Below, piece after piece: positions 17,703-37,407 of a stretch of DNA of 64,000 nt. The position numbers and the translations under genes were made by a program. The first letter of the stretch is position 1. The number at the start of each line of letters is the position of its first letter. The notes beneath the pieces were generated by a model that was not told the DNA's origin, ran no database searches, and worked only from the letters and a program-made list of their open reading frames with translations. This stretch comes from a virus, in the IMG/VR virus record IMGVR_UViG_3300042564_006854, positions 4,579-68,578 of that record; one strand, 5' to 3'.

Positions 17703-18506
17703 TTAAATTGGAAGTTTCACTTTATTTAATAATTGATTTGATACATGCGTATAAATTTCAGTAGTCTTAGAAGAAGAGTGTCCTGCAATTTTCTGAATAA
17801 TTCTAAGATCAGTCCCAGATTCTAGAAGATTAGTAAAAGAAGAATGTCTTAAGGTATGGATAGATGAATCTGAAGCAATGTATTTTTTGTAGATTTTCTG
17901 ACAACTTCCTATTGAATATTGTAATCCGTTTTGACCATTAAATAAATATACTTCTGGTTTATATTCTTTAAAATATTGTCTTGATAATTCTAAAACAGTT
18001 TGTGATAGTGGGACTATTCTATCTTTTCTGCCCTTTGCATTCTTAATATGAATTAACATGCGTTTAGAATCAATATCTTCTATCTTAAGATTAACTACTT
18101 CAGAAACCCTTAGTCCAACTGAGTAAGTCAAAGTTAAAATTGCTCGGTGTTTTAAGTTTACAATTTTAGATAATTTGGATTTTATATAATCTCCATCTAT
18201 CACTTTAGGTAGTTTCTTTTCTGTTCTAGGCCGCTTAAAACTTACTTTATCGTATTTTTTACCTAAAACTTCTTTATAAAGAAATCGAATAGAATTAATA
18301 ACTTGATTTTGTTGTGAGACCGATGTAAACTTATAACTATCTAAATACGATTGAAAATCAGTTGAATTACAATGGATGATTTGTTTGTCTCCTAAACTTT
18401 CTAAAAAAGATTTGACGTGAGACATATAATTATCTCTAGTTCTCGGAGAATAGTTTAAGTATATAAACTTTTCTTCACAAATCTTTATAATTTTTTGATT
18501 TTTCAT
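17703..18506 (-). CDS. tyrosine site-specific recombinase (XerC/D-integrase family)
   Basis: C-terminal catalytic signature HTLRHSSFTNLLESGTDLRIIQKIAGHSSSKTTEIYTHV (R...H-x-x-R...Y); N-terminal SAM-like domain. Confidence 0.8.
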   Translation of the reverse strand: MKNQKIIKICEEKFIYLNYSPRTRDNYMSHVKSFLESLGDKQIIHCNSTDFQSYLDSYKFTSVSQQNQVINSIRFLYKEVLGKKYDKVSFKRPRTEKKLPKVIDGDYIKSKLSKIVNLKHRAILTLTYSVGLRVSEVVNLKIEDIDSKRMLIHIKNAKGRKDRIVPLSQTVLELSRQYFKEYKPEVYLFNGQNGLQYSIGSCQKIYKKYIASDSSIHTLRHSSFTNLLESGTDLRIIQKIAGHSSSKTTEIYTHVSNQLLNKVKLPI

Positions 18507-18610
18507 TATTTAAAGTATTAAATATTAAACACTTAGAAAAAGGTTATTATATAATATAGTTATATTCAATTTGTTCGTTCCTCAAAAACTACGCTTCGCT
18601 GAATATAACA

Positions 18611-18820
18611 TCAGATAAACAAAATAAAATTAAAAATCAACGATATTACTAATATAATTCCGATTCCAATTATCCATTTTCGTGCAAGAAAAAATCCTTG
18701 TACAAAACCATTTGAGTATCCACTAGTATATGAGCGTTTATCTAAGTTTAGACTTTTGTAGTCAACCTTGTCGTGTTCCTTTAATTTTTGTAAAAGGATT
18801 TTTTTAAGTATCCGTTCCAT
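18611..18820 (-). CDS. small membrane protein
   Basis: 69-aa ORF with a C-terminal hydrophobic helix. Confidence 0.3.
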   Translation of the reverse strand: MERILKKILLQKLKEHDKVDYKSLNLDKRSYTSGYSNGFVQGFFLARKWIIGIGIILVISLIFNFILFI

Positions 18821-18875
18821 ATTTTTAATTTTACATTCGTTTATCTGAGTATCGTTATAAGTAATAAAACAAAAA

Positions 18876-19175
18876 TTATTTACTTAATCTATTAAACAAT
18901 TCTTCATTAACGATAATGTTATTGATTGTCTTTGGGTCACCAGTCAATTCTTCAGTTAAGTATTCGTGAGCTAACTGATTAACTACTATATTATCAGTAT
19001 CAATATCTGAATAGTGAATGTGCTCAAATGCTTTTTCGAGTTCCAACTTATCTTCTAAGGTTGGAACTATAATTTTATATTTAGTCCATTTCACTTTTTT
19101 CATTTCTTCTTCTGTAAGGTAATCAGTTTTGTTATCCTCATTCTTGAAGTCATCATATCGTTTCATTCTTTCCAT
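18876..19175 (-). CDS. hypothetical protein
   Basis: 99-aa ORF. Confidence 0.4.
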   Translation of the reverse strand: MERMKRYDDFKNEDNKTDYLTEEEMKKVKWTKYKIIVPTLEDKLELEKAFEHIHYSDIDTDNIVVNQLAHEYLTEELTGDPKTINNIIVNEELFNRLSK

Positions 19176-19216
19176 GTGTTTTATATTTAATTGTATAATT
19201 TTTGTTTTACATACTT

Positions 19217-19266
19217 ATAACAAATGATAAACAACATTAAAACGATTGTTTATCATCGGACGTTAG
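19217..19266. repeat. ATAAC-hairpin(CATTAAAACGA loop)-GTTAG element R1
   Basis: ATAAC, stem GATAAACAA, loop CATTAAAACGA, stem TTGTTTATC, then ACGTTAG; one of six copies with the same architecture. Confidence 0.6.
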
Positions 19267-19276
19267 TGAGAATAAA

Positions 19277-19555
19277 TTAAACTTCCTCAATTTCACAAGT
19301 CATTAAATGCTGGAAGGTTCTCTCAAAAGTGAAATTGTGTTCAATGTCTTTCAATATAAAACCATGTTTCATCTTTTTAATAACTTCAACAATATATGGT
19401 TCTTCGCCAACATTATCATAATCATGTTCAGTGATTTTATATTGAGAACCAACCAACATTTGATGTGAATTGTTTAATTTACTCTCACTAACACCAGATA
19501 TGTTCAATTTTTCTGTGTGTTCTAAAAAACTTTCTATGTGTGATTTACGTTTCAT
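19277..19555 (-). CDS. hypothetical protein (NLNIS-VSES paralog family)
   Basis: 92-aa ORF; N-terminus HIESFLEHTEKLNISGVSES shared with ORFs 20204 and 19954. Confidence 0.4.
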   Translation of the reverse strand: MKRKSHIESFLEHTEKLNISGVSESKLNNSHQMLVGSQYKITEHDYDNVGEEPYIVEVIKKMKHGFILKDIEHNFTFERTFQHLMTCEIEEV

Positions 19556-19622
19556 ATTCTAAATTCATTTATCTATATATTAAAAGAAAAACTAAACATA
19601 TCTGTAAACGTTATGTGCAAGG

Positions 19623-19910
19623 CTAACATCCTGCATCACAAGTATAATTTGGCGTTTTAATTCCAAACATAATTCTAAATGTGCCAACAACTATTGCATA
19701 GGTAATCATATCATCAGACACCCACTTTCTATATCCTGTTAAGTAAGCATAATTATATGGTGGTTTCTTTGCAGTTTTAGGAAATTGGTGAAACGCCAAA
19801 TAATACTTTTTGTTTTGAAATGCTTTGTACATCGTTTTCAAATTAAATTTAGTGCTGATGAACCGCCCAGCACATAACAGCGGTTTGTGGTCATTAGCCC
19901 GACCACACAA
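19623..19910 (-). CDS. hypothetical protein (true start probably internal)
   Basis: 95-aa ORF whose first about 25 codons overlap hairpin element R3; the Met at about 19832 (MYKAFQNKK...) is a likelier start. Confidence 0.3.
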   Translation of the reverse strand: MCGRANDHKPLLCAGRFISTKFNLKTMYKAFQNKKYYLAFHQFPKTAKKPPYNYAYLTGYRKWVSDDMITYAIVVGTFRIMFGIKTPNYTCDAGC

Positions 19911-19951
19911 GGCTTTGCTTCGCTAACGAACCACAAGCCGCAAAACGTTAT
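19874..19951. repeat. ATAAC-hairpin-AAAACGTTAT element R3
   Basis: ATAAC, nested stems (TTGTGGTC/GACCACAA; GGCTT/AAGCC; TTCG/CGAA), then AAAACGTTAT. Confidence 0.5.
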
Positions 19952-19953
19952 GT

Positions 19954-20142
19954 TTAATTCTCAAATAAATGAATGTGTTTAACAACTAAGTTTAACATAC
20001 CATTTTCAATCATATGTTCGTTATGTTCTTTTGATACCAACTTACATTTACCACATTCATAAAAAGAACTAAACATAACATCAGATATATGTAATTTTTT
20101 ATCCGTGTTATCAAGTTCTGTGTTCTTATTTACTTCTTCCAT
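19954..20142 (-). CDS. hypothetical protein (NLNIS-VSES family, divergent)
   Basis: 62-aa ORF with KKLHISDVMFSS; upstream leader shares the AAAAACTAcATATATCTGTAAcCGTTA motif with genes 19277 and 20204. Confidence 0.3.
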   Translation of the reverse strand: MEEVNKNTELDNTDKKLHISDVMFSSFYECGKCKLVSKEHNEHMIENGMLNLVVKHIHLFEN

Positions 20143-20203
20143 ATTTTTAAGTTTGTTAATTTAAGAAAAAACTACATATATCTGTAACCGTTAGTGAGAA
20201 TAT

Positions 20204-20452
20204 TTATTCATCATCACCTTCTGTATGATATTTATCTATCTTTTTATCAGATACTTTTATTTTTCCGTTTTTAGGATTTTCGTAAACATATACCCATTTT
20301 TTACCACTAAATAATCCATATGTTTCACCCATTCCCTTAAAAATAAAAGTATCTTTGTTCCTAAATTTATCAAAAATACTCTCACTAACATCAGATATAT
20401 TCAAGTTTTCTTGATGTTCGTTGAAACTTTGTATGTGTTTATTATCTTTCAT
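20204..20452 (-). CDS. hypothetical protein (NLNIS-VSES paralog family)
   Basis: 82-aa ORF; HIQSFNEHQENLNISDVSES. Confidence 0.4.
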   Translation of the reverse strand: MKDNKHIQSFNEHQENLNISDVSESIFDKFRNKDTFIFKGMGETYGLFSGKKWVYVYENPKNGKIKVSDKKIDKYHTEGDDE

Positions 20453-20533
20453 CTTCGTTTATTATTTTTAGTGTATATATTAAAAAGAAAAACCTAAATA
20501 TATCTGAATATCGTTATCGGCAACCCTAAGCGA

Positions 20534-20752
20534 CTACCCTAATTTTGACGGTGGAGTAGTTGTTATCTTCATATACTTTCTAAGTATGTATTGCAACTTA
20601 CTCATTGACGTTGATAGCCCTTCTATTTTTGGTGGTGCAACATCTCTCATATCAGTTCCGTCTTCAATTACACTTTCTGCTTCTGCACAATCCCAGCAAG
20701 CACCTAATCTTAAATCTTGCGTTCTACCGCAGCAAATACATTGTCCTGTCAT
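20534..20752 (-). CDS. zinc-ribbon protein
   Basis: 72-aa ORF with CICCGRT...CWDCAEA (C-x-x-C ... C-x-x-C). Confidence 0.4.
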   Translation of the reverse strand: MTGQCICCGRTQDLRLGACWDCAEAESVIEDGTDMRDVAPPKIEGLSTSMSKLQYILRKYMKITTTPPSKLG

Positions 20753-20802
20753 TTTGTTTTTATTTTAAATTGTTAATATTAATTCCGAAAGAAGGGCAGC
20801 CG

Positions 20803-20853
20803 ATAACAGCACATTGGCGGCATTAAAACGACCGCCAATGTGCATCACGTTAT
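20803..20853. repeat. ATAAC-hairpin(CATTAAAACGA loop)-GTTAT element R6
   Basis: ATAAC, agc, perfect 10-bp stem ACATTGGCGG, loop CATTAAAACGA, stem CCGCCAATGT, gcatcac, GTTAT. Confidence 0.65.
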
Positions 20854-20870
20854 ATTCAATATCAAAAATT

Positions 20871-21137
20871 TTATGAGTTTATTATTTTTTGACCTCCCCA
20901 ATCTGTTCCATCATAAGAAATGGTTTCCATTTTATACACATCAACAAAAACACCCCAACCCCATTCAGTTTGATAAAATACTTCATCATCTTTTAACTTA
21001 TCAGTTCTCCATAAACTTTCGTTTGATGTTTTTGTTTTTCCGTAGTATTTTATTTCTCGTTTGTCGGTCAAAGAAAATTCAATCATCTCTCCATAACCAT
21101 TCAGTTTAATCTTTTCTGGTAAATTCATATTTTTCAT
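20871..21137 (-). CDS. hypothetical protein
   Basis: 88-aa ORF with ordinary composition; preferred over the overlapping plus-strand ORF. Confidence 0.4.
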   Translation of the reverse strand: MKNMNLPEKIKLNGYGEMIEFSLTDKREIKYYGKTKTSNESLWRTDKLKDDEVFYQTEWGWGVFVDVYKMETISYDGTDWGGQKIINS

Positions 21138-21162
21138 TTGTATAAAATTTTTGATACTAAAT

Positions 21163-21212
21163 ATAACAAAGAATATGTGTCATTAAAACGAACACATATT
21201 CTCAACCGTTAT
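21163..21212. repeat. ATAAC-hairpin(CATTAAAACGA loop)-GTTAT element R7
   Basis: ATAAC, aaa, stem GAATATGTGT, loop CATTAAAACGA, stem ACACATATTC, tcaacc, GTTAT; a partial second copy (GCACATTAAAACGATTTTATAAC) follows at 21215-21237. Confidence 0.65.
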
Positions 21213-21240
21213 AGCACATTAAAACGATTTTATAACAAAA

Positions 21241-21340
21241 GATATAAGTAATGTGGCTGTTTGCTTACACAATATCTATGGCTTACATTTTGGATTGCTT
21301 ACGCTTTACTGCGGCTGTCCTTCACCACACTACTTATATC
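21241..21340. repeat. 100-bp element bounded by 16-bp inverted repeats
   Basis: GATATAAGTAATGTGG (21241-21256) and CCACACTACTTATATC (21325-21340) match in 15 of 16 positions as an inverted repeat; the interior holds three GCTTAC(A/G) direct repeats and two GGCTGT copies. Confidence 0.45.
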
Positions 21341-21363
21341 TTCAATCATTAGCAGAAATAAAA

Positions 21364-21510
21364 ATTACTTACGTTCCTGAACTTCGATAGTAATTTCGTT
21401 TCCTTCAACTTCTATTTGTTTTTTAATCGCTTCGTTTAATATTCTTTCAAGTTCTTCTTTGGTGTAGTTAATCCAATGTGATACTACTTCTACTTTATAA
21501 ATTGTTGCCA
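21364..21510 (-). CDS. small hypothetical protein (48 aa; not in the ORF track)
   Basis: Reverse-complement reading gives MATIYKVEVVSHWINYTKEELERILNEAIKKQIEVEGNEITIEVQERK; it fills the gap between elements. Confidence 0.3.
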
Positions 21511-21581
21511 TAATCCGTAATTTTTACTATCTGCTAACAGCGTATATACAAGATACGCCTACAAGCATTTGTTTATAATTT

Positions 21582-21624
21582 ATAATTCCGTTAAGGCGTA
21601 CCTCGTATATACGCAAAACGTTAT
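21582..21624. repeat. ATAAT-hairpin-AAAACGTTAT element R8
   Basis: ATAAT, stem GCGTA, loop, stem TACGC, then AAAACGTTAT. Confidence 0.5.
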
Positions 21625-21632
21625 AAGCAAAT

Positions 21633-21923
21633 TTAAAAACCACCCCAGCGGTCTGCTTGTTGCCATTGAATCATTACGTTTATCATTCTGATTAGTATAG
21701 CTTCCGTCATTTTGTGGTACTTTGTCCATCTTAAAAAGAATGGGCGATTTTTGTGTATTACAAGTTCGTTTACCAAATCTCCCAACCCGAACTCAAAGTA
21801 TTCTCTCATTAATTTTGCCATTGGCTCATAGCTGTGGCAGTCGGTGAATGCCCCACTGTATAATTCCAATGATGGGAAACCTCCCTTGTGGTCTTTTTTG
21901 ATGTATTTGTTTAATGGATTCAT
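21633..21923 (-). CDS. hypothetical protein
   Basis: 96-aa ORF. Confidence 0.4.
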   Translation of the reverse strand: MNPLNKYIKKDHKGGFPSLELYSGAFTDCHSYEPMAKLMREYFEFGLGDLVNELVIHKNRPFFLRWTKYHKMTEAILIRMINVMIQWQQADRWGGF

Positions 21924-21957
21924 GTATTTTGTTTTTTTATAGTTTTTAAATCAGCTT

Positions 21958-22007
21958 ATAACACAGTATTTACGCCATTAAAACGAGCGCAAATACCCGT
22001 CCGTTAT
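21958..22007. repeat. ATAAC-hairpin(CATTAAAACGA loop)-GTTAT element R9
   Basis: ATAAC, stem GTATTTaCGC, loop CATTAAAACGA, stem GCGcAAATAC, ccgtcc, GTTAT. Confidence 0.6.
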
Positions 22008-22010
22008 TTT

Positions 22011-22397
22011 TTAGTGTAGTAAAGTATTGCAGTCTTCTTTCCAGTCAAAATGGCCAACATTTATTGGTCGGCATGTGTCACTACTTACTAAAATAAACAT
22101 TAATTCATCAGAGTCATCATCTAGGTGAAACGTAAAACCTTTACCTTTAAGAAAATGTATTTTATACTGGTGATCAGTAAAAACAATTTGATCTCGAGGT
22201 ATTCCGCAAGATTCAGCTATTTCAAACAGGATAATATTTTGATCTTTACTCCAGTGCCAACCTCTTGCAATTATGTCTTCAGTAGTTGTTCGAGTAGTTA
22301 CAATCCATACTTCATGACCAGAGTCAACTAGACTCTTTGCATATTCTTGAACATCAGCACGTCGAAGAGTACCATCAAAATCAAATGAAACTTTCAT
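22011..22397 (-). CDS. HAD-superfamily small hydrolase
   Basis: N-terminal FDFDGTL (HAD motif I DxDGT); 128 aa; paralogous to ORFs 24486 and 32756. Confidence 0.5.
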   Translation of the reverse strand: MKVSFDFDGTLRRADVQEYAKSLVDSGHEVWIVTTRTTTEDIIARGWHWSKDQNIILFEIAESCGIPRDQIVFTDHQYKIHFLKGKGFTFHLDDDSDELMFILVSSDTCRPINVGHFDWKEDCNTLLH

Positions 22398-24150: not shown

Positions 24151-24489
24151 ATGAAGAGATATATTAAATTATACGAAAGCTGGATTCACACTGAAAAATA
24201 TGAACTTGCCTCTAAGTTTAGACGTAAAGTTGATTCAAAGATAAAGATAACTGTTAGTCACGGTAAAATTGAAGAGATAGAAAATGAAGCAAACTATCCT
24301 TTTCCATTTTTTAAAGGTCAACCCTTTCAAAAAGCTTTTGTTAGAGGCTGGGCATGTAAAAATGGATTTTACTTAAATGGAGAAGAGCCGTGTCATGTTC
24401 CTGAAAAGAAAATCTTTGGTGTAAAGACGAAGGACGTTCCTCATGGTCATGAATGGAGAAGTATTTTTCCAGGAAAATTTAGAGATTAG
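24151..24489 (+). CDS. hypothetical protein
   Basis: 112-aa ORF; ends in TAG. Confidence 0.4.
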   Translation: MKRYIKLYESWIHTEKYELASKFRRKVDSKIKITVSHGKIEEIENEANYPFPFFKGQPFQKAFVRGWACKNGFYLNGEEPCHVPEKKIFGVKTKDVPHGHEWRSIFPGKFRD

Positions 24490-24872
24490 AGAATTCCCAT
24501 CTCTTCCAGTAAGACTCTGCATTTAGCCCAATCTACAAAAGGACGACCTGATAAATTAGGATCAACCTTTAACGGAATGCCTAAACAAATATCGTCTATA
24601 ATTAATTGACCATATGCTTTCGGTGAACTTGTCCAAGCCTTTTGTGTAGGATTCTCCTGAATTCCATAAAGAGGAATATCATTTTTCTCAAACCATTGAA
24701 TTGCATCTTTTAAATATGCTCCTTGCACACCATTACAGCGCATAGTAAATAGGATCAGTCTATTTCCAGCAAGTACAAGATCTTTTAATACTTCAGGTGC
24801 ACCAATTTCGTGTCCAACATTTGGAAATTCGTGTGTTGTACACGTTCCATCAAAATCTACTAATATATCCAT
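24486..24872 (-). CDS. HAD-superfamily small hydrolase
   Basis: ILVDFDGTCT (DxDGT motif I); 128 aa. Confidence 0.5.
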   Translation of the reverse strand: MDILVDFDGTCTTHEFPNVGHEIGAPEVLKDLVLAGNRLILFTMRCNGVQGAYLKDAIQWFEKNDIPLYGIQENPTQKAWTSSPKAYGQLIIDDICLGIPLKVDPNLSGRPFVDWAKCRVLLEEMGIL

Positions 24873-24893
24873 TTTCCTTAGGTTATTTTACAA

Positions 24894-24922
24894 TAAAAAG
24901 GTCTCGATGGAATACCGAGACC
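24894..24922 (-). terminator. rho-independent terminator (minus strand)
   Basis: Minus-strand GGTCTCG-GTATTCCAT-CGAGACC hairpin followed by TTTTTATTG; it closes a roughly 340-nt ORF-free minus-strand region. Confidence 0.5.
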
Positions 24923-25268
24923 TTAATAACTATGCGATCCATTTCCAAGTGGAGTACTCTACCTAATCTTGACATTGCATCGTTAGATGATTCTAGTCTC
25001 AAGGAATCAAGTACCTTACCGTTGACTCAATACTATGCATCGTATCGAATACTCTTGGCTGTAAACAGTTTTAGATAAAGGTTCGGCCTTTTATGTCAGT
25101 CGCACGACTCGTTATTACCCCAAAACCCCAATTCCGTTCCCCCTAACTATCTTGAATCTATATCAAAATTATAGACTCTCAAGGATTGGTAGCATTTATT
25201 GTTTTAACTGTGTCAACATTCAGTCGATAGTCAAAATTATTATACTTCTTTTTTTTAAAAGGTTTAAA

Positions 25269-33127: not shown

Positions 33128-34819
33128 TTAGATTTGTGAAAGTAAACGGATTCTATCTCTAATTTCAGTTAACGTTACTTGATTGTAAAATTTACCATCT
33201 TCATAGATAGTCTGTAATAGTCCACCCTCTTCTTGTTCGTGAGTACACTGTACATTAACTTCAAGTTGATCTTTACCATCATACTTAAGTTCGTATGGTA
33301 AAGCATCAGGTCGGTTATTGAATACTTGACACATACCTTTTAATGATTTTTTAGTACCATCATCAGTTGCTGGGTCTTTATAGATATCGTATTCAACTCC
33401 ATCTGCCATGAACCACGAACCTTTTACTGCAATACCGAAAGTATCTCTAGTATTATATTGATAAGTATAAGAACCAACACCTAAAACAATATTTGTTGCA
33501 GCGAAGTTTTTATTAGCTAATCTTTCATAAATTTGAACTTGTCTCTTTAAGGTAATTGAATCACCATAGATTGCTCCAATATGAGAATCAAGAACTCGGT
33601 AGCCTTCTTTAGATACAGTTCCACCAAAGATATCCCAAAGTAATTCAATAACACCTTTAAATTCATGTAAATTTTCTTTTTTACCTTTACCATTTATACC
33701 ATTTTCAAAGTGATTATAATTATCTAAAGATGTTGCGTTTTCCCCTAAATAAGCAGGAATTTTATATCCACAAATAATATCAACAGGATCACCAGAGTCA
33801 GGACGAATTACTAATTTACCATCACGAGCCATAATTTGCTCTTTTAAACGAGGTAAAATCTCAGTAATTACTCGGAATAGGTCAAACGTATCTGAAACTA
33901 CTGAAAGGATTCCAGCTGGGAAAATTCTTAACCATTCTCTTAAGTTTGCCCATTCAGCAATAGCCATTAAATCTGGATTTTCGCGAGTAGATTTGGTTGC
34001 TGGTACATCAAAAGAATAATATTCATCAATTAAGTGTTGACCTAATCCAGACTTCAACATATTTTGGTAATAAAATATACCTGTACAAGTTACACTATGC
34101 TCTGATGCATTTACTGAAGCAATACATACTTCATCTTCACCAACTCCATAGAAATAACGAGCAGCATCAATTACGATTAGGGTATCTGAACCAATAAATG
34201 ACATTGTGTGAGCTAAACCAGAAGAAATTGTTGAAAATGGGTCCAATCCTCTTGCTGAGAAATCATGACATGCATAATCAATAAACCATGCATTCTCTGA
34301 GTCAGTTTTCATTACCCAATGAGTGGCATTTCTTCTGTATTGTAATGCAATAGTTGCATTTGTTGTACCTTTCCATGAAAGACTTGATACTGGAGTTTCA
34401 AGATATAGAGTAAGCCATGCAAATCCTGGAACAGTATTAACAAATGTTTGGTGTGGAATATTTGGATTAGTTTCAATTCCTTCAGGTAAAGCCTTTACCC
34501 TAATTGGTAAATAACCTAATTTGTGTAAAGCTTCAAAATGTTCACCATTAAATGGTAATCCAAGATATTTTGACATATCTCTACCAAATTTTTGAGCAAC
34601 CTCAATAGGTTGATTGAAGAATCCTTCTTCAAATTGGTCATGCAACCACATCCAAGCTAATTGCTGTTCAGCGGATAGTATTTTAGTTATACCTTCTGGT
34701 GCATGTTTTAAACTTCGTGGAATCAAAGTACCATATAGGTAATCGGTACCTGGAGCAAGCATTGCTCTATGCCCAATTTTATAGCCATCTGTTAAGGCTA
34801 GTGGATTTGGTCTAAACAT
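33128..34819 (-). CDS. nicotinamide phosphoribosyltransferase-family protein (NAMPT/NadV-like; possibly Namat-type)
   Basis: ALTDGYKIGHRAM (human NAMPT LLATDSYKVTHY), VIRPDSGDPVD (IIRPDSGNPLD), and LGVGSYTYQ in the GSGGG position; 563 aa. Confidence 0.85.
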   Translation of the reverse strand: MFRPNPLALTDGYKIGHRAMLAPGTDYLYGTLIPRSLKHAPEGITKILSAEQQLAWMWLHDQFEEGFFNQPIEVAQKFGRDMSKYLGLPFNGEHFEALHKLGYLPIRVKALPEGIETNPNIPHQTFVNTVPGFAWLTLYLETPVSSLSWKGTTNATIALQYRRNATHWVMKTDSENAWFIDYACHDFSARGLDPFSTISSGLAHTMSFIGSDTLIVIDAARYFYGVGEDEVCIASVNASEHSVTCTGIFYYQNMLKSGLGQHLIDEYYSFDVPATKSTRENPDLMAIAEWANLREWLRIFPAGILSVVSDTFDLFRVITEILPRLKEQIMARDGKLVIRPDSGDPVDIICGYKIPAYLGENATSLDNYNHFENGINGKGKKENLHEFKGVIELLWDIFGGTVSKEGYRVLDSHIGAIYGDSITLKRQVQIYERLANKNFAATNIVLGVGSYTYQYNTRDTFGIAVKGSWFMADGVEYDIYKDPATDDGTKKSLKGMCQVFNNRPDALPYELKYDGKDQLEVNVQCTHEQEEGGLLQTIYEDGKFYNQVTLTEIRDRIRLLSQI

Positions 34820-36044: not shown

Positions 36045-36514
36045 ATTAATTCTTTATTTTTAATATCTTCTAATAATTCAATTAGTGTTGAGTAATTTGG
36101 AATTCCATACCTCTCACAAACAATATCAACATTACCTTTTTTCCAAAAACCAGTAGGACAACATACTAATATTTTCCCAGAATCTGCAAATTTACCAAAT
36201 TCAAGTAGAGAGATTGGTGATTTTGTGTCTGGAGAAAAATACATGATTATCATGTCAGACTTTTCTAGTGCATTTAATTCCCAATTTACCTGTTGATAGA
36301 ATTGCGGGCTCATTGCGTCTTGAGACCAACTTGAGTCCCAAGCATCTCGTCGAGGATTAAGGATAACTATCTCTCTTGGATAGTGTTTAAAAAAATTCTC
36401 AACTTGAGTTTGCCAGTCTTCGGCAATTCCCATTTCAATACTGCCTGCTAAAAATATTGATCGAATATTTGCGCCAGTCTTGCTTATTAGATGGGGAGGT
36501 TTAATGATTATCAT
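36041..36514 (-). CDS. nucleoside 2-deoxyribosyltransferase-like (Rossmannoid SLOG/NDT-fold) protein
   Basis: IFLAGSIEMG...W near the N-terminus and SPISLLEFGKFADSGKILVC near the C-terminus resemble the NDT-like pattern (I-Y-L-A-G-P...E-L-G-x-A-x-x-x-G-K-P-V); the call is tentative. Confidence 0.4.
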   Translation of the reverse strand: MIIIKPPHLISKTGANIRSIFLAGSIEMGIAEDWQTQVENFFKHYPREIVILNPRRDAWDSSWSQDAMSPQFYQQVNWELNALEKSDMIIMYFSPDTKSPISLLEFGKFADSGKILVCCPTGFWKKGNVDIVCERYGIPNYSTLIELLEDIKNKELI

Positions 36515-37407
36515 AAGAACACATTAAATTGATTTAAGAATCCTTCACGAACAGTGTAGTCTGAGTATTCTTCAACTCGAATATCTTTGACACTATTTGT
36601 ACAATATACTCTATCAAAATACTTAGAAAGTTCAAGCAGCCCAGCTGAAAATATTCCATGTGTTACAATCAAGTAAATTTTATCATTAAATATTGATCTA
36701 GGTCTCTGTTCAAGAATTGCTTTAGCTACTTCAATAAAGGTTCGACCGCCATCACAGATATCGTCGATTATTACAAAGTTTTTATCACCGTCTCCATTTA
36801 TTTTAGGTATTTCAGTATGTAGTATTTTACCAGTTTTCAAGTCTCTAACCTTTGATGCAGTTACAACATTTTGAATATCAAAATGCTTAGCTACTCCATA
36901 TATTTTCTTTAGTGCACCTGCATCTGGTGAGATAATACACATTTTTTCTCGAGCAGTATTAGTATTATCAATTGCAGTAAGAGCAGCTTTCACTAGACTG
37001 TGGTTATCAATCTTCTCTAGTCGATCAATACATGCCTCAATAACGTCAGAATGAGGATCTAGGACTAAAACTCCTTTATAATGTTGTGCATTAATAATTG
37101 GAGCAACAACATCCTTAATGTAATTAATTGAGCCTACTTCAAACTTGCGATCACTACGTCCACCTAGGAAATATGGAATATAGAGAAAAATATCGGTCAT
37201 TCCTAGATTCTTTAATGCAGCAGTTGCACAAAGAATAAGTTCAAGATCCTTAAAGCTAGTAAACTTTGAATAGATTTTAATTGCAATTTCAGAACCTACA
37301 TTTGAAATTATTTTAATTGACTGTTGACCATCAGGAAATTGTGTTTTCTCGAACTTAATATCTGATTTTTCAGGATAGACTAGATTAAGTGTGCTAATTT
37401 TTGACAT
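36511..37407 (-). CDS. ribose-phosphate pyrophosphokinase-family protein (Prs-like; possibly Adps-type ADPR pyrophosphokinase)
   Basis: FPDGQQSIKI (E. coli Prs FSDGEVSVQI), IPYFLGGRSDR (IPYFGYARQDR), LDPHS (VDLHA), ISPDAG (VSPDIGG), VIIDDICDGGRT (VLVDDMIDTGGT), VTHGIFSAG (ATHPIFSG). Confidence 0.8.
   Translation of the reverse strand: MSKISTLNLVYPEKSDIKFEKTQFPDGQQSIKIISNVGSEIAIKIYSKFTSFKDLELILCATAALKNLGMTDIFLYIPYFLGGRSDRKFEVGSINYIKDVVAPIINAQHYKGVLVLDPHSDVIEACIDRLEKIDNHSLVKAALTAIDNTNTAREKMCIISPDAGALKKIYGVAKHFDIQNVVTASKVRDLKTGKILHTEIPKINGDGDKNFVIIDDICDGGRTFIEVAKAILEQRPRSIFNDKIYLIVTHGIFSAGLLELSKYFDRVYCTNSVKDIRVEEYSDYTVREGFLNQFNVFL

Follow-up and report, generated by a model that had tools for sequence, protein, structure and literature searches.

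A candidate integron-like cassette platform in a large-phage family

Within the 64-kb stretch of viral DNA analysed here (the window), a tyrosine recombinase gene, an attI-like site and an array of cassettes, each typically one small ORF preceded by a folded site, are best explained as an integron-like cassette platform of a large-phage family, a reading to which we give a probability of about 0.7. The family, with contigs of up to about 360-390 kb, probably has hosts among the Bacteroidota. This reading draws on how the sites are built, on their exclusive clustering by the recombinase gene, on the covariation of their stems, on a folding bias toward the sense strand and on cassette turnover between near-identical phages. 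The recombinase would then act on both the array sites and the attI-like site.

An initial sequence-only reading of this DNA had described an array of small genes with ATAAC-hairpin-GTTAT elements beside a tyrosine recombinase, and that array is real. It spans 18.5-22.0 kb of the window and comprises ten small minus-strand ORFs, rather than the approximately eleven first counted, and eleven hairpin sites in a single orientation, bounded by (A/C)TAAC at one end and GTTA(T/G) at the other (Table 1). The sites are 48-252 nt long, where 45-80 bp had been given, and they do not simply follow ORFs: the usual travelling pair is a site 5' of its ORF, with hairpins 25-50 nt ahead of start codons or enclosing them, and each of the four class C sites either takes in the beginning of an ORF or surrounds an entire one. 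Class C sites hold even the start codon. A detector defined as TAAC, up to 9 nt, a stem of at least 8 bp and up to 6 nt before GTTA returned ten real array sites and one likely false match inside an array ORF; outside the array, it gave only one weak match on the same strand in the rest of the 64-kb window. The eleventh site (21232-21352) has TAAT instead of TAAC. The loop motif CATTAAAACGA is present in five exact copies, all on the plus strand and all within 19235-21986. Four are those already recognized in hairpins, whose quoted stems were correct and complementary; the fifth (21217-21227) lies between GTTAT and ATAAC and has no class A stem. Nine of the 13 copies of CGTTAT in the window fall inside 18853-22002 (binomial 1e-9).

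Table 1. Features of the locus, from the recombinase gene outward.
Feature	Coordinates	Strand	Basis or remarks
Tyrosine recombinase, XerA/IntI-like type, 267 aa	17703..18506	(-)	Pfam, NCBIfam, alignments to 4a8e, 2a3v, IntI1
attI-like junction, sense strand ...GAATATAAC followed by TATATTATATAATAACC...	18507..18563	(-)	Ends about 55 nt ahead of the recombinase ATG; TAAC + TATnATATATA kept in nearly all related loci, 5' sequence unrelated
41-nt geneless stretch flanked by the last site's GTTAT and the attI-proximal ATAAC	18564..18604	(-)	Other loci have its end, AAATTGAATATAAC, as the 3' end of a cassette
Class C site, stem TCAGATAAAC/GTTTATCTGA	18605..18858	(-)	210-nt interior containing entire 69-aa ORF 18611-18820
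Cassette ORF, 99 aa	18876..19175	(-)	Shared with locus L036 at 93% nucleotide identity; recombinase genes of the two only 71%
Class A site, 50 nt, loop TCGTTTTAATG	19217..19266	(-)	Most frequent allele; 93-100% identical copies in many loci, up to 5 per array
Cassette ORF, 92 aa	19277..19555	(-)	First ~20 codons within site 19488-19614
Class C site	19488..19614	(-)	Long stem around 5' UTR, ATG and first ~20 codons; core GTT translated as Val
Cassette ORF, 69 aa, ATG at 19832	19623..19832	(-)	5' UTR 96% identical to a stretch of LR745206
Class B site	19874..19951	(-)	Split loop motif TCGTT-[28 nt]-TAATG
Cassette ORF, 62 aa	19954..20142	(-)	N-terminus within site 20075-20194
Class C site	20075..20194	(-)	
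Cassette ORF, 82 aa	20204..20452	(-)	N-terminus within site 20385-20517
Class C site	20385..20517	(-)	
Cassette ORF, 72 aa, cysteine-rich	20534..20752	(-)	
Class A site	20803..20853	(-)	R6 of the sequence-only reading
Cassette ORF, 88 aa	20871..21137	(-)	
Class A site	21163..21212	(-)	R7 of the sequence-only reading
Geneless mini unit	21208..21236	(-)	Sense strand GTTAT-AAAA-TCGTTTTAATG-TGCT-ATAAC
Degenerate class B site	21232..21352	(-)	Sense-strand 5' core CTAAT; covariance model E 0.53
Cassette ORF, 48 aa	21365..21511	(-)	
Class B site	21534..21624	(-)	Top match in the window to the bacterial-site covariance model (45.7 bits, E 3e-10)
Cassette ORF, 96 aa	21633..21923	(-)	
Class A site, most distant from recombinase	21958..22007	(-)	R9 of the sequence-only reading

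Across 80 related phage contigs, sites are concentrated in the 4-5 kb directly upstream of the same 267-aa recombinase: their density is 1.0-1.6 per kb in the upstream 4 kb versus about 0.02 per kb downstream (81 loci), and a site lies within 1.5 kb upstream of the recombinase gene in 51 of 56 loci. The exact loop 11-mer is almost confined to this upstream side and always lies on the recombinase strand; its two downstream copies both belong to one locus (L029). Nearly all loci share an array-backbone junction, TAAC followed directly by TATnATATATA, located 55-60 nt ahead of the recombinase ATG, and the DNA 5' of it is unrelated between loci. This junction is an attI-like site. An ATAAC had been pointed out in the spacer before the recombinase; the informative core there is GTTAT at 18559-18563 on the plus strand, at the backbone junction. 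We consider it very improbable that the enzyme is an ordinary phage integrase or Xer-type dimer resolvase accompanied by unrelated small mobile palindromes (MITE- or REP-like), even though its closest phage homologues in GenBank (31-38% identity), from phages of Cellulophaga and Polaribacter, carry an integrase annotation, and no recombinase lies within 20 kb of the four sites in LR745206. The array end is fixed at the conserved junction in nearly all loci, the rest of the window is without these sites, and recombinase and array remain together while the flanking genes vary.

The recombinase matches Pfam Phage_integrase (PF00589, 2e-32) and Phage_int_SAM_4 (PF13495, 2e-12), and all of its catalytic motifs are there (GLRVSE, KGRKDR, HTLRHS, GHSS and IYTHV). 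Among NCBIfam models it scored 167 bits with XerA_Arch and 154 bits, in two stretches, with integrase_gron, both below cut-off; it scores below the TIGR02249 cut-off. In alignments to 4a8e, 2a3v and IntI1, the IntI-specific insertion (~40-50 aa) is absent, a point that the sequence-only reading did not foresee. In IntI this insertion touches extrahelical bases and is needed for attC recombination (PMC8138268). Recognition of folded sites by the phage enzyme would therefore require a different solution. XerCD, an Xer-type enzyme without the IntI insertion, recombines a folded single-stranded hairpin at the CTX phage attP, which shows that the insertion is not strictly required for such substrates, although CTX attP is a single integration site mimicking dif and the phage case is a cassette array.

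The covariation first noticed in four stems held up in a compensatory test on class A sites, where both sides had changed in 11 of 12 pairs and 97.5% of cells were paired, a result matched by none of 500 shuffles. On the sense strand, G·T pairs numbered 484 versus 57 A·C pairs. When both strands were folded, as had been proposed, the sense strand folded better in all ten sites (mean 1.8 kcal/mol), and a TAAC/GTTA helix formed in 7/10 sense-strand folds versus 1/10 on the opposite strand. Both the G·T pairs and the fold energies point to folding of the gene-sense strand, a bias that an RNA structure fits equally well. Site-specific recombination of duplex DNA at short TAAC/GTTA cores, with hairpins acting mainly as RNA (for instance in processing or stabilizing a polycistronic transcript or controlling its translation), would accommodate the G·U-compatible bias on the transcribed strand, the sense orientation of every site, the placement of hairpins ahead of or around start codons, and an enzyme that resembles the duplex-acting Xer/XerA recombinases and lacks the IntI insertion. 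This arrangement is nevertheless unlikely: a 5-bp core without a second arm at fixed distance is unworkable as a duplex core site, TAAC meets GTTA only in the folded site, whose length varies, and in bacterial relatives the sites lie antisense to the ORFs, so that there the fold is not mRNA-bound.

Cassette content and order, which it had been suggested to compare among relatives, differ between identical backbones. Among 14 pairs of loci whose recombinase genes are 98.8-100% identical and whose spacers do not differ, 8 have unrelated sequence directly upstream of TAAC. Locus L016 has a backbone 97-99.6% identical to those of L033/L034 and cassettes that are 99.9-100% identical but changed in order, one 960-nt cassette having shifted to the attI-proximal position. 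The unit 20848-21165, which carries the 88-aa cassette, recurs in other contigs at 99.7% identity with four different 3' neighbours: its end, ...ATAAC, abuts one of three different hairpins or else the attI-like site with the beginning of the recombinase gene. Homology ends within 6 nt of a TAAC in 12/21 cases on the 5' side and 12/20 on the 3' side, versus 6.9% expected. Three different hairpins also stand upstream of the 88-aa cassette, which makes TGTTA a second module boundary, unexplained by a simple one-crossover model; hairpin and downstream ORF do not always travel together. These comparisons show cassettes gained, lost and reordered between near-identical phages, with breakpoints at TAAC. 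The cassettes are diverse (589 ORFs in 476 clusters), and their cargo consists of accessory genes, for example orphan DNA methylases.

The sequence-only reading had left two interpretations, of which the integron-like one is supported by comparative evidence (recombinase linkage in 80 loci, the attI-like junction, breaks at TAAC and stem covariation) and the other, PeSL-like regulatory cassettes, is not favoured. PeSLs combine a sigma-70-type promoter with a stem-loop, are dispersed in hyperplastic regions and are homology-driven, with no dedicated recombinase (PMC4122927). PeSLs of T4-type phages resemble the array in their repeated stem-loops between small variable ORFs (PMC2839356, PMC4122927), in gene shuffling and in having some modules with a translation start, as class C sites contain a start codon and N-terminal codons. 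The hairpins would then be terminator, promoter or translation-start modules, genes would be shuffled by homologous recombination, which identical 50-nt hairpins in up to five copies per array would favour, and the recombinase would be a bystander. This is an unlikely explanation of the array. At junctions with the attI-like region, and likewise where unlike hairpins meet, TAAC is all that is shared, 4-5 nt that are insufficient for homologous exchange; a single cluster of sites is linked to the recombinase in 80 loci, with no dispersal; and the TAACG/TGTTA flanking cores are conserved across hairpin classes otherwise unrelated in sequence. Sigma-70-like promoters are unenriched (12 found versus 21.8 expected), and no U-tract terminators were found at the array sites. 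Neither the promoter, the dispersal nor the recombinase-free homology of PeSLs fits the phage array.

In bacteria, attC-like arrays lie next to IntI/XerA-like recombinases, for instance in Desulfitobacterium sp. Sab5 and under the NCBIfam entry NF040815 ('site-specific tyrosine recombinase/integron integrase'); their sites share with the phage sites TAACG, a 4-5-nt bulge, a stem and TGTTA. A covariance model was built only from the sites of two bacterial arrays beside recombinase relatives, in a Desulfitobacterium chromosome and a Nitrospirae MAG. In the window it matched six of the array sites, and no more, at E ≤0.006 and nothing in the rest of the window below E 0.3. Its scores for class 1 attC sites were weak (12.7-14.1 bits, E 0.18-0.44). 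On its bottom strand, the aadA2 attC, of class 1, reads CTAACG...TGTTAG, equal to the extended cores TAACG...TGTTA of the phage sites. The bacterial IntI/XerA-like recombinases are 41-50% identical to the phage enzyme; the one aligned to VchIntIA, from Desulfitobacterium, is without the IntI insertion, and three match TIGR02249 in two stretches, below cut-off. The three bacterial enzymes read have an additional ~100-aa N-terminal region that the phage enzyme lacks. The locus read in detail is that of Desulfitobacterium, where the enzyme's gene precedes its cassettes in the same orientation, each cassette being an ORF and then a site. We found no paper treating loci with an insertion-less bacterial IntI/XerA-like recombinase and an attC-like array as a class.

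As in bacterial integrons, the phage recombinase gene is transcribed away from an adjoining insertion site, the array consists of small, highly diverse cassettes, one specific strand of the sites shows evidence of folding, cassettes turn up again at the attI-proximal position, and assemblies break within the array, with contigs ending inside it (compare PMC9024848). Like attC, each site is an imperfect palindrome, variable in sequence and length and bounded by ...TAAC and GTTA..., with the crossover end distal to the recombinase. Given this orientation of gene and sites, the layout is canonical, contrary to the first impression that the recombinase is placed unlike intI; the reversed part is the cassette ORFs. 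All of these are reversed relative to integrons, so that each site lies 5' of its ORF and there is no Pc-type promoter logic. Further differences are the 267-aa recombinase without the IntI-specific insertion, the phage carrier, and a one-sided 4-5-nt bulge where attC has a two-sided central spacer and extrahelical bases; the invariant 11-nt loop of one site subclass has no integron counterpart, and another subclass holds the ORF start. CALINs and a few integrons have been described in phage genomes (Qi et al. 2023, PMC9892861), with attC-type sites in virulent phages and cassettes that include orphan DNA methylases. The described cases are sporadic clusters of at least two canonical attC sites, or bacterial integron fragments, whereas at least 80 related phage contigs in the present comparison keep a dedicated phage recombinase and an attI-like site together with the array; LR745206 looks like a site cluster lacking a recombinase, similar to a CALIN.

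Under the integron-like reading, the sense strand of a site would fold during phage replication so that TAAC(G) and (T)GTTA pair as an R-box-like helix beside the 4-5-nt bulge and the sequence-variable stem. The recombinase would bind two folded sites, or a folded site and the attI-like site, and cut inside TAAC or at most 3 nt beyond its 3' end; that strand would be exchanged and the junction resolved by replication. Cassettes would leave as circles and re-enter next to the recombinase gene, and expression of their reversed ORFs would have to depend on read-through across the co-oriented array or on signals within the sites. Related phages appear to use the array for swapping accessory genes, and cassettes may move in this way between co-infecting phages.

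A hairpin array beside the tyrosine recombinase gene had been described from the sequence alone, and it proved to be real and far beyond chance, judging by the clustering of its loop motif and core. Ten small minus-strand ORFs (48-99 aa) lie 5′ of the recombinase gene in gene orientation, interspersed with eleven hairpin sites, the eleventh of which has TAAT instead of TAAC. A detector requiring TAAC, a stem of at least 8 bp starting within 9 nt of it, and GTTA within 6 nt of the far end of the stem recovered ten real sites in the array and one likely false match within an array ORF; the rest of the 64 kb yielded one weak match on the same strand. All five exact copies of CATTAAAACGA occur on the plus strand inside 2.8 kb, and 9 of the 13 copies of CGTTAT in the window fall inside the array (P ~1e-9). 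An Rfam scan of 17.0-23.5 kb returned chance miRNA-like matches only. Our interpretation, to which we assign a probability of roughly 0.7, is that array and recombinase together form an integron-like platform for gene cassettes, native to a family of large phages.

The source of the window, which has a G+C content of ~33%, is a phage, encoding a portal protein, head-tail adaptor, baseplate-like protein, DNA polymerase, primase, helicase and PhoH. It also carries a phage NAD+ salvage pair (NAMPT and ribose-phosphate pyrophosphokinase) and a UAG-reading tRNA (anticodon CTA), labeled tRNA-Pyl by ARAGORN; this tRNA is possibly an amber suppressor, a hint that part of the phage genome reassigns stop codons. 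A stretch of ~400 nt that starts with a G+C-rich hairpin may act as a terminator or encode a small RNA.

Coordinates of the array, the recombinase gene and other features
Feature	Sequence	Position	Strand
Tyrosine recombinase ORF, 267 aa	window	17703-18506	-
attI-like junction	window	18507-18563	
GTTAT of the junction	window	18559-18563	+
ORFs and hairpin sites of the array	window	18.6-22.0 kb	
Cassette shared with L036	window	18853-19190	
Leader-related ORFs	window	19277-19555, 19954-20142, 20204-20452	
51-nt match to LR745206	window	19832-19882	
88-aa cassette	window	20848-21165	
Gene-less mini unit	window	21208-21236	
128-aa HAD-like ORF	window	22011-22397	-
128-aa HAD-like ORF	window	24486-24872	-
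Stretch without ORF of at least 30 aa	window	24873-25268	
Hairpin ggtctcgatggaataccgagacc	window	24900-24922	
NAMPT	window	33128-34819	-
Ribose-phosphate pyrophosphokinase (PRPP synthetase)	window	36511-37407	-
tRNA with anticodon CTA	window	43072-43145	-
Four sites of LR745206.1 (~589.5-591.3 kb)	L082	21512-23321	
Desulfitobacterium sp. Sab5 locus (NZ_CP172056.1)	L148	7674-16329	
Leader-related cassette ORF	L009	363-968	
Leader-related cassette ORF	L069	7950-8369	

On the gene-sense strand (the window minus strand), every site takes the form (A/C)TAAC-G-(3-5 nt)-stem...stem′-T-GTTA(T/G). Of 338 distinct sites, counting those of the window and those of its relatives, 332 have T before GTTA; the unpaired stretch measures 4-6 nt 3′ of TAAC vs 1-2 nt 5′ of GTTA, forming a one-sided bulge. 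Three classes can be distinguished. Class A sites (50 nt) have a 12-bp stem and an invariant loop, TCGTTTTAATG; class B sites (80-100 nt) are long imperfect hairpins; and in class C sites (110-140 nt) a 19-21-bp stem surrounds the 5′ UTR, the ATG and ~20 codons of the downstream ORF, with the core GTT translated as Val. Class C ORFs continue beyond the site for a median of 51 codons, vs 4 in the other two frames. These sites also encode ...LNISDVS across the 3′ stem arm.

Covariation of the class A stems, another claim made from the sequence alone, held up when compensatory change was tested: both sides had changed in 11 of 12 pairs, 97.5% of cells were paired, and none of 500 shuffles matched this. 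Non-Watson-Crick stem positions on the sense strand were G·T in 484 cases vs A·C in 57, counts that are non-independent because the sites are related. When the window sites were folded as ssDNA, the sense strand folded better in 10 of 10 (by a mean of 1.8 kcal/mol), and a helix closed by TAAC(G)/(T)GTTA formed in 7/10 sense-strand folds vs 1/10 folds of the other strand. The G·T bias and fold energies indicate that the sense strand folds, and such a folded single strand would be the recombination substrate. The eleven window sites, and 410 in relatives, are imperfect palindromes bounded by AAC...GTT in which structure is conserved over sequence, as in attC sites.

We rejected the possibility that crossover takes place in the loop, as it would in a duplex core site of the classical kind: variation in the arms is compensated, 11 nt is too long for the spacer, and the breaks in homology lie at TAAC/GTTA, with none in the loop. 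A gene-less mini unit, GTTAT-N4-TCGTTTTAATG-N4′-ATAAC, occurs in the window and, in three related loci (L006, L026 and L055), directly before the attI-like junction. Its GTTAT+N4 pairs with N4′+ATAAC, and the N4 pairs are compensatory (AAAA/TTTT vs GGCA/TGCC); the loop motif thus also exists outside class A stems.

Recombinases 60-92% identical to the window enzyme are carried by 80 IMG/VR contigs of up to 362 kb. In these loci the 4 kb directly upstream of the recombinase hold 1.0-1.6 sites per kb vs ~0.02 per kb downstream, and a site lies within 1.5 kb upstream in 51 of the 56 loci with enough flank (0-18 sites per array). The exact loop 11-mer is nearly confined to the upstream side (two downstream copies, in L029) and is always on the recombinase strand. 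The genes flanking recombinase and array differ between loci; a synteny comparison of the window flanks with the related loci found no shared flanking genes. Contigs commonly end inside the array, including contigs with identical recombinase protein, and repeated attC sites are known to break integron assemblies likewise (PMC9024848).

Almost every locus has a junction 55-60 nt 5′ of the ATG of the recombinase gene, where unrelated sequence ends in (A/C)TAAC; after it come a variable triplet and a conserved TATATATA-rich spacer (TAAC/TATnATATATA, the slash marking the junction). Among 14 pairs of loci with identical spacers and recombinase genes at least 98.8% identical, eight have unrelated DNA directly 5′ of TAAC, so the junction variation between close relatives that the sequence-only reading had named as its key check is present. 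As at attI, a conserved junction lies beside the integrase gene with unrelated cassettes on its 5′ side, and we infer that cassettes are inserted there.

As with integron cassettes, a given cassette (a folded site with, usually, one small ORF) turns up at differing positions and in more than one array, and its junctions lie in the core site. Loci with recombinase genes of just 71-78% identity have sites that are 93-100% identical, and one whole window cassette is 93% identical in L036, a contig whose recombinase gene is 71% identical. The related contig L016 has a backbone 97-99.6% identical, and cassettes 99.9-100% identical, to those of L033 and L034, but the cassette order differs: a 960-nt cassette at -3390 in L016 lies directly at the attI-like junction in L033/L034. 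The 88-aa cassette, which ends ...TTGAATATAAC, is 99.7% identical in four contexts, and its 3′ neighbor differs each time: class A hairpin (window), class B/C hairpin (L085), the common class A allele (L086), or attI-like sequence with the start of a recombinase gene (L087).

Inter-locus homology ends within 6 nt of TAAC at 12 of 21 5′ ends and 12 of 20 3′ ends (random, 6.9%). Because the junctions share just 4-5 nt, neither homologous recombination nor assembly chimeras explain these breaks, and we rejected chimeras as the cause of junction variation. Mostly the hairpin moves with its downstream ORF, making the unit TAAC/G, hairpin, ORF, ...TAAC. One exception is the 88-aa cassette, whose three different upstream hairpins make TGTTA another boundary between modules. 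By our reasoning, hairpin tips would be swapped if two folded sites underwent a complete exchange of both strands. Overall, the comparative sequence case for site-specific cassette turnover at TAAC beside the recombinase is strong.

Junctions this short also bear on the proposal, made alongside the integron-like one, that the elements are PeSL-like regulatory cassettes. PeSLs combine a sigma-70-type promoter with a stem-loop, are dispersed over the genome and recombine by homology (PMC2839356, PMC4122927). Exchange by homology is contradicted by the 4-5 shared nt; the sites form a single cluster, whereas PeSL copies are dispersed over hyperplastic regions; and a scan for promoters of the sigma-70 type found 12 vs 21.8 expected, none systematic at sites. 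Neither sigma-70 promoters nor intrinsic terminators were enriched at sites, and the class B loop motif AACTTTCAAATTAC, considered as a genome-wide promoter, gave 27 matches vs 26.9 expected. The PeSL proposal does not fit.

Two further observations concern the distribution of array sequences. Two 128-aa HAD-like ORFs lie outside the array or at its edge; homologs of the one farther from the array are found within the L010 array and, in L002 and L029, close to the recombinase, a placement that suggests array-backbone exchange. A GenBank phage DNA search gave only a 51-nt match (96% identical), to the 634-kb uncultured phage LR745206.1, and led to four like sites there, identical loop included. 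These have no related recombinase within 20 kb and resemble a CALIN.

The recombinase itself matches Pfam Phage_integrase and Phage_int_SAM_4. It scores 167 bits with NCBIfam XerA_Arch, 141 with XerC and 140 with XerD, its best solved relative is Pyrococcus XerA (4a8e), and its homologs all bear the name XerD. Dimer resolution of the Xer/dif type would entail a match to a curated XerC/XerD/XerA model and a single dif-like site of ~28 bp; all Xer models scored below their cut-offs. The integron integrase model TIGR02249 gives 154 bits in two stretches vs a cut-off of 265. Conserved catalytic residues are visible in alignments to VchIntIA and IntI1, and the alignments break exactly at the IntI-specific insertion, with ~48 residues missing relative to VchIntIA (2a3v) 174-262 and 52 gap positions in the same region relative to IntI1. 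By this defining protein feature the recombinase is not an IntI. The insertion has been described as essential for integron function, and as not fully conserved within an 'integron-like' recombinase subgroup (PMC8138268). The recombinase would be the enzyme that catalyzes cassette exchange.

On the plus strand, the leftward-transcribed recombinase gene comes first, followed by the attI-like site and then by repeated units. Each unit ends ATAAC-a-stem...stem′-nnnnC/GTTAT, its crossover being distal, and the layout matches that of intI, attI and attC in canonical integrons. For the class 1 attC of aadA2 (from plasmid pFBAOT6, beside an annotated intI1), the bottom strand reads CTAACG...TGTTAG and has the extended cores of the phage sense strand; crossover position, core-flanking bases and G·T bias identify the phage sense strand as equivalent to this bottom strand. 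Conversely, every phage ORF is reversed relative to integron cassettes, so that the array is co-oriented with the recombinase gene and each site lies 5′ of its ORF. Integron cassettes hold promoterless, Pc-expressed ORFs pointing away from intI; here ten of ten point towards the recombinase gene. The remark that the recombinase is placed unlike canonical intI is thus correct for co-orientation, a result of the reversed ORFs, and incorrect for its layout relative to the sites. Curated attC sites also differ in having extrahelical bases and an unpaired central spacer in place of the one-sided bulge. Together, attC-like sites, attI-like junction and cassette mobility support the earlier integron-like proposal, and the lack of the IntI insertion and the ORF orientation depart from it. 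Published phage 'integrons' are sporadic canonical attC clusters or bacterial-integron fragments, unlike this system (PMC9892861), and our literature search found no paper describing such a phage recombinase-array system.

The nearest homologs in bacterial genomes, mostly Bacteroidota, are at most 50% identical; only a 2-kb MAG contig gives a higher value, 67%, over a partial match. At least two TAACG...GTTA hairpins occur in 14 of 80 bacterial loci. In Desulfitobacterium sp. Sab5, a 385-aa enzyme lacking the IntI insertion scores high enough for NF040815 (a model named 'site-specific tyrosine recombinase/integron integrase'). After it come nine units, each an ORF and then a site, with the bulge-and-core architecture of the phage sites. 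Relatives of the phage recombinase also lie beside arrays of attC-like sites in L143, L129, L118 and L095. Three enzymes read beside bacterial attC-like arrays are 347-385 aa long with an extra N-terminal region; absence of the insertion was checked by alignment for the Desulfitobacterium enzyme alone. Finders that require the insertion would probably score these loci as CALIN.

A covariance model built from sites in two arrays only (Desulfitobacterium and a Nitrospirae MAG) and run over the whole window without filters picked out six sites of the array, all of class A or B and on the minus strand (scores of 45.7-19.9 bits; E-values of 3e-10 to 0.006), and, across the window, nothing outside the array better than E 0.3. 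Class 1 attC scored weakly (12.7-14.1 bits), on the expected strand and in the expected places. These results indicate that the phage sites belong with a bacterial subclass of attC-like sites. The hairpins may also act at the RNA level, possibly alongside a role in DNA; an RNA role alone leaves the cores, junctions and recombinase linkage unexplained, and it is the antisense strand of the ORFs that folds in the bacterial relatives.

The 410 units have a median length of 369 nt and hold 589 sense ORFs (median 82 aa) in 476 clusters, 396 of them singletons. Pfam matched eight of ten long cassette ORFs, to seven families: N6_N4, D12 and MT-A70 DNA methylases, RNA ligase, 3′-5′ exoribonuclease, SmpB and NUDIX. 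These are typical phage accessory and counter-defense functions. Some 6% of cassette proteins have unrelated C-termini joined to a common N-terminal leader, MELRKFIATTIREYLNE or MSKEMREHIDKVKNFKQFVNE; related ORFs occur in the window and in cassettes of L008-L075. The leader ends in L-x-E, as do T4 capsid-targeting sequences, and could be a targeting or processing signal.

Integrons are seen as belonging to bacteria, with an integrase defined by an insertion held essential for recognition of folded attC sites. We lean, by a narrow balance, towards a broader proposal: that large, probably Bacteroidota-infecting phages run their own integron, in which a minimal, insertion-less IntI/XerA-like recombinase takes up and reshuffles cassettes via folded attC-like sites, drawing on a pool shared by distantly related phages, and that with their bacterial relatives they form an unrecognized integron-like branch, probably scored as CALIN or missed. 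The bacterial relatives suggest an under-count of integron-like systems, particularly in Bacteroidota and Bacillota, for which integrons have been described as rare (PMC9024848). If the proposal is true, phages trade accessory genes (orphan methylases, RNA ligase, a NUDIX protein, SmpB) by integron logic. It would explain a hypervariable phage region that breaks metagenome assemblies, and would offer a small, 267-aa recombinase for studying folded-site recognition without the IntI insertion.
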